IMG/VR virus record: IMGVR_UViG_2534681705_000014
Span: 1 to 5,214 of that record
From: a virus
Taxonomy: Duplodnaviria; Heunggongvirae; Uroviricota; Caudoviricetes
Length of the DNA: 5,214 bases
Reading direction: 5' to 3' (one strand)
Shown here: positions 1-5,214 of the stretch, one piece after another
Layout: each line of letters opens with the position of its first letter
Numbering within the stretch: the first letter of the stretch is position 1
Notes under the pieces: generated by a model
Told to the model about the DNA's origin: nothing
The model's database searches: none
Seen by the model: the letters and a program-made list of their open reading frames with translations, nothing else
Made by a program: the position numbers and the translations under genes

Positions 1-191
1 TCCATGAACCGGCAACGGATGTCAGCCGGGTGTTCTCAACGGTGATAGATATGCCGGCAGGACGGGGCCATGTCACCCTGACGTTTAATGTGTCATCGAC
101 CGGCGCGAACAAATGGACGCCGACAACGTACATCAGCGATTTACTGGTGGTGGTCATGAAAAAATCCACGGCAGGAATCAGTATCAGCTGA
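1..191 (+). CDS. J: Tail tip / host-specificity protein J-like, C-terminal fragment (5' partial; gene continues upstream of the window)
   Basis: Open frame in phase with codons starting at nt 3 runs from the window edge to a TGA at 189-191 (…[21 protein letters not shown]). It is not in the ORF track because it has no start codon in the window. The call is by synteny only: in lambda-type prophages the gene immediately upstream of lom is J. I cannot verify the residues against J from memory. Confidence 0.55.
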
Positions 192-208
192 CGATTTATT
201 AACCCGGA

Positions 209-234
209 GGGGCACCCGAAGCGGTGCCTTTTTT
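209..234 (+). terminator. Rho-independent terminator downstream of the J-like gene
   Basis: Seen in sequence: GC-rich inverted repeat GGCACC (211-216) / GGTGCC (223-228) with a 6-nt loop CGAAGC, followed directly by TTTTTT (229-234), 18 nt after the TGA stop. Confidence 0.7.
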
Positions 235-258
235 ATTGACTGAAAACGAGAGGTAATC

Positions 259-870
259 ATGCGCCATATTTTATTTTTTGTCGCTTTTCTGGCAGGAATG
301 GCCCTTCCTGCGCAGGCTGAAGTCGGACACGGTGCGTTTTCCGTGGGATATGCTCAGGTTCACCCGGGCGGCGTGCCGGCATTGTCCGGTACCGGTGCCC
401 GTACAGGTGATTTAAAAGGGATTAACGTGAAATACCGTTATGAATTCACGGACCATGCGGGTGGTATTGTTTCGCTGAGTTATGCGTCGGCGAAAAAAAG
501 CGACACGATGAAGACGGGTGAAAATACGTTCCATTATGAAAGCCTGCGCGGTCGTTATGTGAGTCTGATGGCCGGCCCTGTCTGGCAGGTCAGTGAGCAG
601 GTCAGTCTCTATGGCACGGCTGGGATGGCTTACACCCGCTGGTCTGACAGTGTTCAGGATTACCGACGTGATGAATTGAAACCGGGGTATGTGAAGGAGA
701 CGACCACCGCCAGTGATGGCTATACCGCACGACACCTGTCGCTGGCATGGGGTGCGGGTCTTCAGTTCAGCCCGGCAGAATCCGTGGCCATTGATATTGC
801 TTATGAAGGCTCCGGCAGTGGTGACTGGCGCACTGACGGTTTCATCGTGGGTGTCGGTTATAAGTTCTGA
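259..870 (+). CDS. lom: Lom-family outer-membrane protein (Ail/Lom/PagC/OmpX-type 8-stranded beta-barrel), prophage lysogenic-conversion gene
   Basis: 203-aa ORF with a Shine-Dalgarno AGAGG (249-253) 5 nt before the ATG. N-terminal signal peptide MRHILFFVAFLAGMALPAQA with an A-x-A cleavage motif. Alternating aromatic/hydrophobic beta-strand pattern and a C-terminal …DIAYEGSGSGDWRTDGFIVGVGYKF ending in Phe, as expected for a BAM-dependent barrel. The segments KGINVKYRYE, FHYESLRGRYVS and KETTTA and the C-terminus match my recollection of phage lambda Lom. Position between J and stf matches lambda. Confidence 0.9.
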   Translation: MRHILFFVAFLAGMALPAQAEVGHGAFSVGYAQVHPGGVPALSGTGARTGDLKGINVKYRYEFTDHAGGIVSLSYASAKKSDTMKTGENTFHYESLRGRYVSLMAGPVWQVSEQVSLYGTAGMAYTRWSDSVQDYRRDELKPGYVKETTTASDGYTARHLSLAWGAGLQFSPAESVAIDIAYEGSGSGDWRTDGFIVGVGYKF

Positions 871-896
871 TTAGCCAGGTAACACAGTGTTATGAC

Positions 897-923
897 AGCC
901 CGCCGGTTCAGGCGGGCTTTTTT
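897..923 (+). terminator. Rho-independent terminator downstream of lom
   Basis: Seen in sequence: perfect 8-bp inverted repeat AGCCCGCC (897-904) / GGCGGGCT (911-918) with loop GGTTCA, followed by TTTTT (919-923). It lies 27 nt after the lom stop and just before the stf ribosome-binding site. Confidence 0.75.
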
Positions 924-934
924 GTGGGGTGAAT

Positions 935-3900
935 ATGGCAGTAAAGATTTCAGGTGTACTGAAAGACGGTGCAGGTAAACCGGTACAGAACTGCACAATC
1001 CAGCTGAAAGCAAAACGTAACAGCACCACGGTGGTGGTGAACACGGTGGCCTCAGAAAATCCGGATGAAGCCGGGCGTTACAGCATGGACGTTGAGTACG
1101 GTCAGTACAGCGTTATTCTGATGGTGGAAGGCTTCCCGCCATCGCATGCCGGGACCATCACCGTGTATGAAGACTCACAACCGGGTACGCTGAATGATTT
1201 TCTCGGTGCCATGACGGAGGATGATGCCCGTCCGGAGGCACTGCGCCGCTTTGAACTGATGGTGGAAGAGGTGGCGCGTAACGCGTCCGCAGTGGCACAG
1301 AACACGGCAGCCGCGAAGAAGTCAGCCAGCGATGCCGGCACATCAGCCCGTAAGGCGGCAACCCATGCGACTGATGCTGCAGGCTCAGCACGTGCAGCCA
1401 GCACATCAGCCGGGCAGGCCGCGACGTCGGCTCAGTCAGCGTCTTCCAGCGCAGGAACGGCATCAACAAAGGCTACTGAAGCATCAAAAAGTGCTGCCGC
1501 TGCAGAGTCCTCAAAAAGCGCTGCGGCTACCAGTGCCGGTGCGGCGAAAACGTCAGAAACGAATGCTTCAGCGTCACAACAATCAGCCGCCACTTCTGCA
1601 TCCACCGCGACCACGAAAGCGTCAGAAGCTGCCACCTCAGCCAGAGATGCGTCGGCTTCAAAAGAGGCGGCAAAATCATCAGAAACGAACGCATCATCAA
1701 GCGCCAGTAGTGCAGCTTCCTCGGCAACGGCGGCAGGAAATTCCGCGAAGGCGGCAAAAACGTCCGAGACGAACGCCAGGTCTTCTGAAACGGCAGCGGG
1801 ACAGAGCGCCTCGGCTGCGGCAGGCTCAAAAACAGCGGCTGCGTCGTCTGCCAGTGCCGCGTCAACAAGTGCCGGGCAGGCCTCAGCCAGTGCCACCGCT
1901 GCCGGAAAGTCGGCAGAAAGCGCCGCATCATCCGCTTCAACAGCCACAACGAAGGCTGGCGAAGCCACTGAACAGGCCACGGCAGCAGCGAGGTCAGCTT
2001 CCGCAGCGAAGACATCCGAAACGAACGCGAAAGCGTCGGAAACCAGCGCAGAATCCTCAAAAACGGCTGCCGCATCGTCAGCCAGTTCGGCGGCGTCATC
2101 GGCATCATCGGCGTCTGCTTCAAAAGATGAGGCGACCAGACAAGCGTCAGCAGCGAAGGGCAGCGCCACGACGGCATCCACGAAGGCGACAGAGGCAGCT
2201 GGCAGTGCGACGGCGGCAGCTCAGAGCAAAAGTACGGCGGAATCCGCGGCAACGCGCGCCGAGACAGCAGCAAAACGGGCAGAGGATATTGCATCCGCTG
2301 TGGCGCTTGAGGATGCGAGCACGACGAAAAAGGGGGTAGTACAGCTCAGCAGTGCGACCAACAGCACTTCCGAGTCACAGGCGGCAACGCCAAAAGCCGT
2401 TAAGGCCGCGTATGACCTGGCTAACGGGAAATACACCGCACAGGACGCTACGACAGCACAAAAAGGAATTGTCCAGCTCAGTAGTGCAACCAACAGCGCA
2501 TCTGAAACGCTTGCCGCGACACCGAAAGCAGTGAAAGCAGCTAATGATAATGCGAATGGTCGGGTACCTTCTGCCCGTAAGGTGAATGGTAAGGCGCTTT
2601 CAGCGGATATAACACTGACGCCGAAAGATATTGGTACGCTTAACTCAACAACAATGTCATTCAGCGGTGGTGCTGGTTGGTTCAAATTAGCAACGGTAAC
2701 CATGCCACAGGCGAGTTCCATCGTTTACATCGCATTGATTGGTGGCGCTGGTTACAACGTCGGTTCCCCACATCAGGCAGGCATTTCAGAACTGGTTCTA
2801 CGAGCAGGCAATGGAAACCCCAAAGGAATTACCGGGGCTTTGTGGAAGCGTACAGCCGTCGGATTAACGAATTTCGCCTGGATCAACACATCCGGCGATA
2901 CATATGATATTTACGTTGAGATTGGCAATTATGCGACGAGTGTAAATATCCATTGGGATTGTACTGCAAATGCGTCAGTTTCTGTTTATACCTCGCCAAC
3001 ATATTCAGCGAGTAAGCCTTCCAGCGTTACCTATGGTGTTGTTTATACGATGTATAGCTCACATCAGAAACCTACACCATCAGATATTGGAGCACTGCCA
3101 ACAACCGGAGGAACAGTTTCAGGTCCGTTGTCTGTTACAGGTGGATTAACTGGTTCATTGAATGGTAATGCAAGTACAGCCACGAAATTGCAGACGGCAA
3201 GATCTATCGGTGGAGTTGTTTTCGACGGTTCTGCAAATATTAACCTTCCAGGTGTAAACACTACGGGTAATCAGAACACCACTGGTAATGCTGCAACTGC
3301 TACAAAACTTCAGACTGCAAGAAAAATATCCGGTGTTCCATTTGATGGTTCTACTGATATCACTTTAACCGCCGCGCATGTGGCTGCTTTTGCCAGAAGG
3401 GCAACGGATACATATGCCGATGCGGATGGTGGCGTTCCCTGGAATGCCGAATCAGGCGCTTACAATGTCACCCGCTCTGGCGACACCTATATTCTGGTTA
3501 ACTTCTATACCGGAGTCGGAAGTTGCCGGACCCTGCAGATGAAGGCGCATTACAGAAATGGAGGTCTGTTCTACCGTTCCTCAAGAGATGGCTATGGTTT
3601 TGAGGAAGGCTGGGCAGAAGTTTATACCTCGAAAAATCTTCCACCAGAAAGCTACCCAGTCGGCGCACCAATCCCGTGGCCATCAGATACCGTTCCGTCT
3701 GGTTATGCCCTGATGCAGGGGCAGACTTTTGACAAATCTGCCTACCCGAAACTTGCAGCCGCTTATCCGTCAGGCGTGATCCCTGATATGCGTGGCTGGA
3801 CGATTAAGGGCAAGCCCGCCAGTGGTCGTGCCGTATTGTCTCAGGAACAGGACGGCATTAAATCGCACACCCACAGCGCCAGCGCATCCAGTACGGATTT

Positions 3901-4294
3901 GGGGACGAAAACCACATCGTCGTTTGATTACGGCACTAAATCCACGAATAACACTGGTGCGCATACCCATAGTGTTAGCGGTACGGCTGCTTCAGCCGGT
4001 GCACATACCCATTCGATGACATTTGTTTCAGGTGGTTCCAGTGGTGCTCCGGGAAGTGGATCACCTGATTATTCTAAATACAGTGTTAACACTTCTTCTG
4101 CAGGCGCTCATACGCACTCTGTATCGGGTACTGCTGCAAGCGCAGGTGCACACGCACATACTGTCGGTATTGGTGCTCATACGCACTCCGTTGCGATTGG
4201 TTCACATGGACATACCATCACCGTTAACGCTGCTGGTAACGCGGAAAACACCGTCAAAAACATCGCATTTAACTATATTGTGAGGCTTGCATAA
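935..4294 (+). CDS. stf: Side tail fibre protein Stf, intact long form (about 1119 aa from the ATG), with conserved N-terminal domain, Ala/Ser/Thr-rich periodic stalk, tail-fibre repeats, a distinct central module and a His-x-His-rich C-terminal tip
   Basis: One uninterrupted frame. The ORF track begins at GTG 929 (MNMAVK…) but ATG 935 ([12 protein letters not shown]…) is better placed, 5 nt after GGGG at 926-929, and matches the lambda Stf N-terminus as I recall it. N-terminal block [26 protein letters not shown]…[15 protein letters not shown]…[23 protein letters not shown], the tail-fibre repeat [11 protein letters not shown]…[10 protein letters not shown], and the C-terminal …[36 protein letters not shown]…[29 protein letters not shown] are hallmark lambda Stf / T4 gp37-type segments. 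The stop TAA (4292-4294) overlaps the tfa ATG. Confidence 0.93.
1280..2326 (+). repeat. Degenerate tandem repeat tract inside stf: about 25 copies of a 42-bp (14-residue) Ala/Ser/Thr-rich unit
   Basis: Seen in sequence: the AAK(T/S)SETNA motif recurs in-frame at nt 1541, 1667, 1751 and 2003, spacings of 126, 84 and 252 bp, all multiples of 42. The protein parses into 14-residue units (…[14 protein letters not shown] / [14 protein letters not shown] / [14 protein letters not shown] / [14 protein letters not shown]…). GC is high here, about 70% in the 60-nt line 1801-1860, and the tract throws off long shadow ORFs in other frames. Confidence 0.8.
2333..2542 (+). repeat. Two tandem copies of the conserved phage tail-fibre repeat (about 44 aa, 132-bp period) inside stf
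   Basis: Seen in sequence: [34 protein letters not shown] and [33 protein letters not shown], with matching DNA gtacagctcagcagtgcgaccaacagc (2336-) and gtccagctcagtagtgcaaccaacagc (2468-). The motif corresponds to the phage tail fibre repeat family as I recall it. Confidence 0.8.
3164..3370 (+). repeat. Two tandem copies of a 40-aa (120-bp) tail-fibre shaft repeat inside stf
   Basis: Seen in sequence: [28 protein letters not shown] and [28 protein letters not shown], starting 120 bp apart (3164 and 3284) and separated by a Gly/Asn/Thr linker [12 protein letters not shown]. Confidence 0.8.
3863..4225 (+). repeat. His-x-His repeat region of the Stf C-terminal tip (SHTHS, GAHTHS x3, GAHAHT, SHGHT)
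   Basis: Seen in sequence: repeated (S/G)AH(T/A)HS units, including two near-identical [17 protein letters not shown] blocks. Established knowledge: the homologous T4 gp37 tip coordinates metal ions through His-x-His motifs in a trimeric needle, and the lambda Stf C-terminus belongs to this family. Confidence 0.8.
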
Positions 4295-4875
4295 TGGCAT
4301 TCAGAATGAGTGAACAACCACGGACCATAAAAATTTATAATCTGCTGGCCGGAACTAATGAATTTATTGGTGAAGGTGACGCATATATTCCGCCTCATAC
4401 AGGTCTGCCAGCAAACAGTACCGATATTGCACCGCCAGATATTCCGGCAGGCTTCGTGGCTGTTTTCAACAGTGATGAGGCATCGTGGCATCTCGTTGAA
4501 GATCATCGGGGTAAAACGGTTTATGACGTGGCTTCCGGCGACGCGTTATTTATTTCTGAACTCGGTCCGTTACCGGAAAATGCCACTTGGTTATCCCCGG
4601 AAGGGGAGTTTCAGAAGTGGAACGGCACAGCCTGGGTGAAAGATGCAGAAGCAGAAAAACTATTCCGGATCCGGGAGGCGGAAGAAACAAAAAACAGCCT
4701 GATGCAGGCAGCGAATGAGCATATTGCGCCACTTCAGGATGCTGTAGATCTGGAAATCGCAACGGAGGAAGAAAACTCGTTGCTGGAAGCCTGGAAAAAG
4801 TATCGGGTGTTGCTGAACCGTGTTAATACAACAACTGCACCGGATATTGAATGGCCAGTAGCACCTATAGGGTAA
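4294..4875 (+). CDS. tfa: Tail fibre assembly protein Tfa (chaperone for Stf trimerisation, T4 gp38-like family)
   Basis: 193-aa [57 protein letters not shown]…[24 protein letters not shown], which matches lambda Tfa as I recall it. Shine-Dalgarno GAGG (4282-4285) lies inside the end of stf. The ATG (4294-4296) overlaps the stf TAA, consistent with translational coupling. Confidence 0.93.
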
Positions 4876-4961
4876 ATTCGTAATGATTACCTAAATACGT
4901 TATTCTTTTGTTCAAAAAGTGATTTTGCTATAGGTAGGGAGTATGTTCTTGGATTAATAAT

Positions 4962-4992
4962 AAAAAATCGCCATGAAAGAGCTTCATGGCGA
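4962..4992 (-). terminator. Strong rho-independent terminator oriented for minus-strand (leftward) transcription, facing the 3' end of tfa
   Basis: Seen in sequence: perfect 10-bp inverted repeat TCGCCATGAA (4968-4977) / TTCATGGCGA (4983-4992) with a 5-nt loop AGAGC. On the minus strand the hairpin is followed by UUUUUUAUUAUU (complement of 4950s-4967). There is no T-run on the plus-strand side. Confidence 0.7.
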
Positions 4993-5214
4993 GTACATAA
5001 ACGTACAAAATGTGATGAAAGTAGAGTGGCGTAAGCCACTATATTAAGATATGACAATAGCAAACAAAAGTAAATAACATTTTATGGACGTTTAATTGTT
5101 AATTATAAAAACTAGAGTGCCCGATATTGTTTATCTTGCTTTAAAATAATGTACTCAAACCAAATTTTTGAGCTAAAAGCTCAAATAATATAAATGCAAT
5201 GATAATGTTTAATA

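Follow-up and report, generated by a model that had tools for sequence, protein, structure and literature searches.

Close to the right end of a 5,214-nt stretch of DNA from a virus of the class Caudoviricetes (IMG/VR record IMGVR_UViG_2534681705_000014, positions 1 to 5,214; this entire stretch is called the window below), an unannotated 78-nt unit on the minus strand probably specifies an undescribed, prophage-borne small RNA (sRNA) of the base-pairing, Hfq type, which shares its terminator with a likewise unannotated YncL-like gene. The window represents that end of a lambdoid prophage which carries lom, the side-tail-fibre gene stf (929-4294), and tfa (4294-4875). Its sequence is found with 100% identity in Escherichia coli O128:H27 strain 90-9281, where the prophage is integrated into ydfJ, which is the Qin site in strain K-12; position x of the window corresponds to position x+1201 of this locus (L001). 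The last 415 nt of the window match the viable phages mEp332, PhiR70_1, and ev099 at 98-99% identity. An earlier reading of the sequence, the original prediction, had proposed a minus-strand terminator at the boundary of convergent transcription behind tfa and, upstream of it, ~150 nt of non-coding sequence that might be a 3′ untranslated region (3′ UTR) or an sRNA. The features considered here are the following.

4962..5039, minus strand: candidate sRNA of ~78 nt, with a putative 5′ end at G5039 and the 3′ end in the U-tract
5025..5040, minus strand: 5′ hairpin, with the GUGGC/GCCAC stem (5039..5035 with 5030..5026) retained throughout
5007..5025, minus strand: single-stranded stretch and presumed seed, UCUACUUUCAUCA(C/U)AUUUU
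4993..5006, minus strand: small 4-bp hairpin GUAC-GUUUAU-GUAC adjoining the terminator; weak and less certain
4962..4992, minus strand: intrinsic terminator, stem 4992..4982 with 4978..4968, loop 4981..4979, U6 at 4967..4962
5046..5074, minus strand: putative sigma-70 promoter of the sRNA, -35 TTTACT (5074..5069), 17 nt, -10 TATCTT (5051..5046), 6 nt, G5039
5075..5140, minus strand: poorly conserved spacer from the stop codon of the open reading frame (ORF) to the putative sRNA promoter region, without a terminator-like site
5141..5214, minus strand: 3′ part (24 of 33 codons plus stop) of the gene for a YncL-like small membrane protein; the full ORF is window 5242..5141, or L001 6443..6342

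Conservation of the 78-nt unit

Three lineages were compared, namely A (the window), B (L004-like loci), and C (Escherichia albertii, locus L058). BLAST with the entire 404-nt module gave identities of 77% for locus L004, 90% for L005, and 94% for L006. Scans for sequence patterns in IMG/VR, metagenomes, and species-representative genomes yielded further copies, among them L058 of E. albertii and, from metagenomes, its two relatives L081 and L086. When genome contigs were scanned, a 31-mer found no match and an 18-mer found one true locus (E. albertii) together with six chance matches. The metagenome scan returned 41 matching stretches; 12 chance matches were left out, as was a true copy (L065) that was lost to a filter. 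As the divergent copies were pulled out by the 18-mer, which spans 5030..5013, the invariance of these 18 nt is partly a matter of ascertainment.

The core (5039..4962) was the best-conserved part of the module, with 94% identity between lineages A and B and 79% between A and C. The corresponding values were 73% and 60% for the 45 nt upstream of the RNA and 66% and 40% for the 100 nt downstream of the core. In the spacer past the ORF stop identity was 57% and 39%, in both cases with indels, and the ORF (79% and 64%) and its promoter and leader (72% and 54%) were intermediate. The core thus outranks the neighboring protein gene in conservation, and drifting sequence separates the two conserved islands. 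Seed and structure appear to evolve more slowly than the flanks (94% and 79% versus 57-66% and 39-40%), where 18 nt of the seed are affected by the ascertainment just mentioned. Within E. coli, identity over a 91-nt core is 90% or higher in each of the 827 carrier genomes, whereas the whole module goes down to 77%.

On this pattern, the ~150 nt between stop codon and terminator are two different things, an unconstrained spacer of ~65 nt and a selected RNA unit of 78 nt. The proposal that the ~150 nt form a 3′ UTR or an sRNA therefore stands for the terminator-proximal 78 nt, which are conserved, but not for the stop-proximal ~65 nt, which are not. A lack of conservation of the hairpins in homologous regions had been named as an observation that would speak against it; both hairpins and the single strand between them proved to be the most conserved part in three divergent lineages.

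Predicted structure and terminator

From 5′ to 3′, the unit is predicted to consist of a hairpin, the invariant single-stranded sequence CUCUACUUUCAUCA, a second, small hairpin, and finally the terminator. For the 80 nt between 5039 and 4960 the predicted folding energy is -26.2 kcal/mol, compared to -9.75 +/- 2.36 kcal/mol for 200 dinucleotide-preserving shuffles, none of which was as good (z = -6.97); the fold analysis suggested in the original prediction thus revealed a stability far above that of shuffled sequence. Folding of the whole 189 nt gave z = -4.43. The folding energy is alike on both strands (-26.2 versus -26.4 kcal/mol) and does not discriminate between them, so it is the U-tract and the wobble-type substitutions described below that point to the minus strand. 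RNAalifold, run with no structure supplied, returned the same three hairpins as our own model, and the covariance model scored 119.7 bits on the window copy and 88.6 bits on the E. albertii copy.

In the 5′ hairpin, the outer A-U pair (5040/5025) is optional, and the loop is UUAC in lineage A and UUAU or AUAU in the others. A C-to-U exchange in its stem creates a U.G wobble in two variants, the plus-strand equivalent of which is an A-C mismatch. This hairpin had been noticed as AGTGGC-GTAA-GCCACT at 5025-5040 and is present there, but the GNRA-type loop ascribed to its plus strand is not meaningful, as the loop on the strand with the U-tract is UUAC and varies between lineages. The sequence CUCUACUUUCAUCA is identical across all lineages, with the ascertainment by the 18-mer covering 5030..5013. 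In the small hairpin, the E. albertii copy has an A-U pair replaced by G.U and four of the six loop bases changed, and one pair is broken in two variants.

Four one-sided changes were found in the stems: C to U (giving U.G), A to G (G.U), C to U (G.U), and a change of G.U to A-U. All of them keep standard pairing on the minus-strand RNA, in which 96.3% of the cells are paired, and three of them (the U.G and both new G.U pairs) would be C-A mismatches on the plus strand. A coding function of the core was considered in view of a 58-aa ORF with a TTG start (4887..5063) and a 113-aa ORF in E. albertii, but these frames are not shared between E. coli and E. albertii, which argues that the core is not coding.

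The terminator is located at the convergent boundary, 93 nt past the tfa stop (4875), and its stem (4968-4992) and U6 (4962-4967) lie where the original prediction had put them. Viewed on the plus strand, T4968-A4977 is perfectly paired with T4983-A4992 over 10 bp. In the minus-strand RNA an additional G.U pair extends the stem to 11 bp (five G-C pairs), followed by U6 after closure by a 3-nt loop, and the hairpin has a ΔG of -15.0 kcal/mol. The elements of a Rho-independent terminator, a G+C-containing stem-loop and a U-tract on the transcribed strand, are thus found on the minus strand, while on the plus strand the stem is followed by GTACATAAACG, without a U-tract. Among 13 distinct variants nine terminator stem pairs are invariant, and the G.U pair is replaced by A-U in three; the loop is rewritten in E. 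albertii. The tail is U6 in lineage A, U5 in some variants, and UUUCUU in lineage B. The claim that this is the strongest terminator-like structure in the window is correct for the length of the stem but not for its stability. A plus-strand terminator at 897-918, directly after lom and before stf, has 8 bp (seven G-C pairs), T5, and a ΔG of -17.7 kcal/mol.

Putative promoter and 5′ end

Upstream of the core, the alignments revealed a common promoter geometry, with TTTACT-17-TAAGTT-6-GTGGC in lineage B and TTTACA-17-TAAATT-6-GTGGC in lineage C. The consensus of the three lineages is TTTAC(T/A), 17 nt, TA(T/A)(C/G/A)TT, 6 nt, GUGGC, and the intervening spacer sequence varies. Besides TTTAC, the positions -12T, -11A, and -7T are invariant, the latter three being the most important for sigma-70. 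This geometry would place the +1 position at G5039, at the base of the 5′ hairpin. Terminator and promoter scans covered the window, the latter with a threshold of 9 of 12 consensus matches. On the minus strand no terminator-like site was detected by the terminator scan in 4993-5140, and as there is none between ORF and core, the mRNA of the small protein should also end at the 4962-4992 terminator. The RNA could possibly be a primary transcript, a processed 3′ fragment of this mRNA, or both. A promoter-like sequence on the plus strand, ATGACA-18-TAACAT (5051-5080, 9/12), overlaps the putative minus-strand promoter and would be read antisense to the small ORF.

Copies in E. albertii

The E. 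albertii-type copies L058 (E. albertii strain NBRC 107761, 1500-1900), L081, and L086 occupy the same chromosomal place and are ~97% identical. They lie between uspF and ttcA, which is the attachment site of the Rac prophage in K-12, in a remnant of ~2.3 kb with no prophage present. Outside the 18-mer, lineage C shows one change in 33 stem positions (A to G, kept as G.U), whereas ~8 of 13 loop positions are changed. The ORF has decayed in this lineage, with frameshifts, changes in poly-A length, no shared start codon, and no stop codon before the core.

Variation among these copies had a gap at the RNA. No variable site was found from -79 to +59 around G5039 (138 nt), and the next ones are at +60, in the terminator loop, and at +82, past the U-tail. 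Elsewhere, about one position in 30 is variable in the flanks, and 11 of 120 columns vary in the ORF part. By our own estimate, the chance of zero variable sites in 138 nt at the rate of the flanks is ~0.01. As the ORF decays while -79 to +59 is invariant, selection in E. albertii would not act via the protein, and the RNA together with ~80 nt upstream appears to be maintained independently of it. The E. albertii module is possibly a case of sRNA domestication. If the RNA is expressed, these copies would be a natural experiment on a prophage sRNA that outlived its phage.

The YncL-like small ORF

The minus-strand stop codon at 5141-5143, given in the original prediction as ~150 nt from the terminator, closes a 33-codon ORF, and the distance from this TAA (5143..5141) to the terminator stem was measured as 148 nt. 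The last 24 codons, LNIIIAFILFELLAQKFGLSTLF*, are inside the window; the full protein is MKIQSKLIVLLNIIIAFILFELLAQKFGLSTLF. The gene upstream of the RNA is a prophage "moron", its start lying just past the end of the window (28 nt). Against the NCBIfam model for YncL (NF000537) the protein scored 25 bits (E = 1.3e-5), which is under the 35-bit cut-off, and 11 of 28 residues (39%) are identical to K-12 YncL (E = 2e-7). As judged from these scores, it is YncL-like but not an equivalog. K-12 YncL, a stress-induced inner-membrane protein of 31 aa, resembles it in its length and its single hydrophobic helix, and both have the pattern M..S(K/R)..VL(L/I)N...A..LF.L....(K/R)FG. The ORF differs from K-12 yncL in being prophage-borne, in lacking an obvious Shine-Dalgarno sequence, and in its 3′ UTR, to which that of K-12 yncL is unrelated. 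YnaM of K-12, a small protein encoded in the same slot of Rac, was considered as a relative and found to be unrelated.

The reading frame is intact in all 76 E. coli-type loci. The distinct codon variants comprise 13 synonymous and 7 nonsynonymous ones, which is a coding signature; on this evidence the YncL-like ORF is a real coding gene under purifying selection. A promoter-like sequence, TTGACT-17-TATTGT, is located in front of it and recurs in the other lineages; no obvious Shine-Dalgarno sequence was seen before the ORF. Among the matches listed from its 829 carrier genomes, the annotation of the ORF in RefSeq was "none" throughout. The exact protein occurs as only two unnamed entries in a collection of 15 billion proteins, a tblastn search of phages with the 33 aa gave no match, and no family was found in PHROGs and Pfam.

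Comparison with known RNAs

Searches of the window and 2.5 kb of the full locus against Rfam 15 with permissive E-values gave no family at its gathering threshold. The best scores were 23.4 bits for MicC (threshold 90), 23.0 for VrrA (50), and 15.6 for Esr41 (102). The sub-threshold matches (MicC, VrrA, Aar, Hrs12, RseX, GcvB, and Esr41) are all to Hfq-type sRNAs, lie on the minus strand, and end at the terminator; we take these weak matches to show a generic sRNA architecture rather than membership of a family. The significant Rfam matches, to IS009, are tfa coding sequence or remnants of it. IS009 (RF02111) matches the 3′ coding part of tfa (window 4700-4835, plus strand; L001 5838-6036) with 145-212 bits, and it also matches two decayed copies downstream (L001 6649-6724 and 7288-7479), one of which translates as ...EWPAVPVG. 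The IS009 "RNA family" thus looks like a fragment of tfa coding sequence. A literature search with strings of the core sequence found no relevant paper in the library covered, the only match being an unrelated proteomics paper on alfalfa, and a second one, on sRNAs of prophages in the vicinity of tail-fibre genes, brought up no match. When our covariance model was applied to the right end of Rac and the yncL region of K-12, to PP6 of enteropathogenic E. coli (EPEC), and to mEp332, only the expected copies were detected, and none in the K-12 or EPEC regions.

Several known sRNAs are similar in part. DapZ and MicL, which have their own internal promoters, and CpxQ, which is released by RNase E processing, are 3′-end sRNAs that share the terminator of the upstream mRNA. 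The candidate resembles them in having a conserved seed and a terminator at the 3′ end of a transcription unit, with no terminator between ORF and RNA. It also has one of the features of an sRNA embedded in a 3′ UTR, a terminator in common with an upstream coding gene on the same strand. It differs from the three in that the upstream gene is a 33-codon moron and in the ~100 nt between stop codon and RNA, of which ~65 are unconstrained.

IpeX, DicF, and KilS, encoded by the prophages DLP12, Qin, and Rac of K-12, are prophage-borne regulators of host genes; the candidate has no sequence or Rfam relationship to them and occupies a different genomic slot. IpeX is encoded behind a phage porin gene. 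KilS originates from the 3′ UTR of kilR in Rac and showed an interaction with yncL in RIL-seq (PMC8175672). Through the KilS-yncL pair (K-12 Rac, L102 8406-8503), lambdoid prophages and YncL-type peptides are connected a second time.

The Pas sRNAs of EPEC E2348/69 are Hfq-dependent and derive from intergenic regions of lambdoid prophages (PMC8550237; bioRxiv 10.64898/2026.05.13.724894). PasB shares with the candidate its size of ~80 nt, its position on the strand opposite to tail genes, a 3′ stem-loop with U-tract, and a proposed single-stranded seed just before the terminator; many E. coli strains other than EPEC carry it once, and IS009 (tfa) matches occur within 10 kb of it. Its place is the intergenic region of the tail genes I and J (NC_011601.1 1466261-1466343), whereas the candidate follows tfa and stands beside a small-protein gene. 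Identity with PasB, suspected from the IS009-rich flanks, was rejected, since the sequence is unrelated, the position is another one, and the probe AATCCCGCAGTGATCGCGGAGCT is absent from the window. Our covariance model found no match in the PP6 tail region of EPEC, the site of PasB.

Proposed function and alternative explanations

The unit has the anatomy of a base-pairing sRNA, as a 5′ hairpin is followed by the invariant unpaired CUCUACUUUCAUCA, a stretch rich in A and U, and a terminator with U-tail. What we infer is that it is transcribed, starts at G5039, depends on Hfq, and acts in trans. In this model the 78-nt unit would be a trans-acting, base-pairing sRNA of the Hfq-dependent type, transcribed from its own sigma-70 promoter (-35 at 5074..5069, -10 at 5051..5046, start at G5039), and the mRNA of the small protein would probably have the same unit as its 3′ end. 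In a lysogen, the single-stranded stretch would pair with one or more mRNAs. Since the complement of the seed, UGAUGAAAGUAGAG, contains AUG, the region of translation start would be a plausible target.

Several observations weigh against such an sRNA. Only three lineages were available, and B and C were partly retrieved by a pattern inside the core, which inflates the conservation of the seed. The putative promoter has 8 of 12 consensus matches in AT-rich DNA, which is under the threshold of the scan, and ~9 of 81 loci carry a C at -12 (CATCTT). The U-tail of lineage B (CUUUCUUAUU) is poorer. The covariation analysis that had been suggested as a check came out divided: the stems are kept, with one-sided, pairing-compatible changes, but double compensatory changes occur in no base pair, and the covariation statistics equal those of shuffled controls. 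As covariation is nil, the structural support rests on conservation, the one-sided changes, and the contrast between stems and loops. Phage mosaicism could produce a local island of high identity, and L005 is in fact a recombinant with its breakpoint at the terminator. When 140 kb of K-12 and the mEp332 genome were scanned for duplexes, no target site stood out. The start region of ompF (AUGAUGAAG) reached -17.5 kcal/mol and ranked among the best 1% of windows, but six candidates had been tried and duplex energies are noisy; ompC (-12.2 kcal/mol, 13%) and yncL were both unremarkable.

An sRNA is not the only explanation for the conservation of the core. It might be only the 3′ UTR of the YncL-like mRNA, with hairpins acting in cis in termination, protection from 3′ exonucleases, or control of the mRNA, and no independent RNA. 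We regard this as unlikely, although the ORF transcript should end at the terminator in the absence of any terminator-like site between the stop codon (5141) and 4992, core and ORF co-occur in essentially every E. coli genome that carries either (827 versus 829), and the internal promoter is weak (8/12). A terminator alone does not account for the invariant single-stranded 14-mer and the conserved 5′ hairpin 50 nt upstream, the stretch that links ORF and core is the least conserved, and in E. albertii an invariant region (-79 to +59 around the core) lies beside a frameshifted and variable ORF. An improbable explanation is that the core has no RNA function and is an island of identity left by mosaicism, that is, by recent exchange or a hotspot of recombination where the tail-fibre module ends, or a site acting at the DNA level. 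The breakpoint of L005 at the core, the decayed tfa 3′ ends stacked downstream in L001, which point to repeated recombination, and the location of the module beside differing cargo (the ydfJ attachment site, sitABCD, intS, and uspF-ttcA) agree with such an origin. Recent exchange fails to explain, however, why stems are kept and loops rewritten in E. albertii, why compatibility of the one-sided changes with wobble pairing is confined to the strand with the U-tract, and why E. albertii copies at a fixed site are still free of variation exactly over promoter and RNA.

The remaining two explanations are highly improbable in our view. A hydrophobic 33-aa peptide, lacking an obvious Shine-Dalgarno sequence and encoded beside a small structured RNA, recalls a type I toxin-antitoxin system in which the YncL-like peptide would be a membrane-depolarizing toxin and the downstream RNA its antitoxin; production of K-12 YncL leads to depolarization of the membrane and condensation of the nucleoid (PMC12542507). 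The RNA is, however, encoded on the same strand, downstream and in tandem, neither antisense nor divergent, and the best duplex of its single-stranded region with the ORF mRNA does not surpass shuffled sequences in lineage A (-14.1 versus -12.8 +/- 2.5 kcal/mol), while in lineage B it is even worse than these; E. albertii, moreover, keeps the RNA while the ORF decays. Alternatively, the element could serve mainly as an insulator that stops cargo transcription from running antisense into tfa and stf and maybe, weakly, late transcription in the other direction. The convergent boundary 93 nt past the tfa stop and a hairpin that folds equally well on both strands would suit this role, but GTACATAAACG on the plus strand is not a U-tract and would make a poor terminator for the late operon, and the conserved sequence upstream of the hairpin is left unexplained. 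The insulator role is compatible with an sRNA rather than an alternative to it.

A more far-reaching version of the sRNA model, which we consider speculative and rather unlikely, is that a phage-borne regulator reprograms envelope or porin synthesis of the host in lysogens by occluding a start codon (with UGAUGAAAGUAGAG as the complement of the seed), that it was domesticated in E. albertii, and that it forms with the YncL-like protein a hitherto unrecognized two-part moron of small protein and small RNA in ~15% of E. coli. If this were true, the RNA would have a value for the host sufficient for domestication, with RNA and promoter surviving in the E. albertii remnant while the YncL-like gene rots. 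If the RNA is expressed, a widespread regulator of the accessory genome and an unannotated YncL-like membrane peptide would be added to the E. coli pangenome. No concept would be changed, since prophage-borne sRNAs of the Hfq type are well known.

Distribution and genomic context

The module is present in 827-829 of 5,426 complete E. coli genomes (~15%), the lower number referring to the core and the higher one to the ORF. It occupies 933-943 places, all of them chromosomal, with up to three to four copies per genome, and it is also found in E. albertii and in the viable lambdoid phages mEp332, PhiR70_1, and ev099. It always follows a tfa gene or a tfa remnant, and what lies beyond it varies (the ydfJ attachment site, sitABCD, intS, or uspF-ttcA). 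The slot after the tail-fibre genes is a classic cargo site, and virulence effectors as well as sitABCD are found there in other prophages. In ~20 complete genomes, including that of the mouse commensal MP1, the module immediately adjoins tfa on one side and the iron/manganese transporter operon sitABCD on the other (L005 and L006, 2500-3300). Locus L005 is L006-like from the ORF through the core and L004-like past the terminator, which puts the breakpoint at the terminator. The stacked tfa 3′ remnants indicate repeated recombination at tfa 3′ ends, with cargo added each time.

The only annotated gene between tfa and the attachment site in L001 (6896-7093, minus strand) encodes a hypothetical protein of 65 aa, WP_001421370.1, which is faintly similar to GlgS (E = 0.037, 14 bits, far under the cut-off). 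Phage mEp332, which carries the module and grows on K-12 MG1655, contains a gene for an NmpC/Lc-type porin between Q and S (L105 15358-16455, minus strand), and this phage already remodels the outer membrane of its host.

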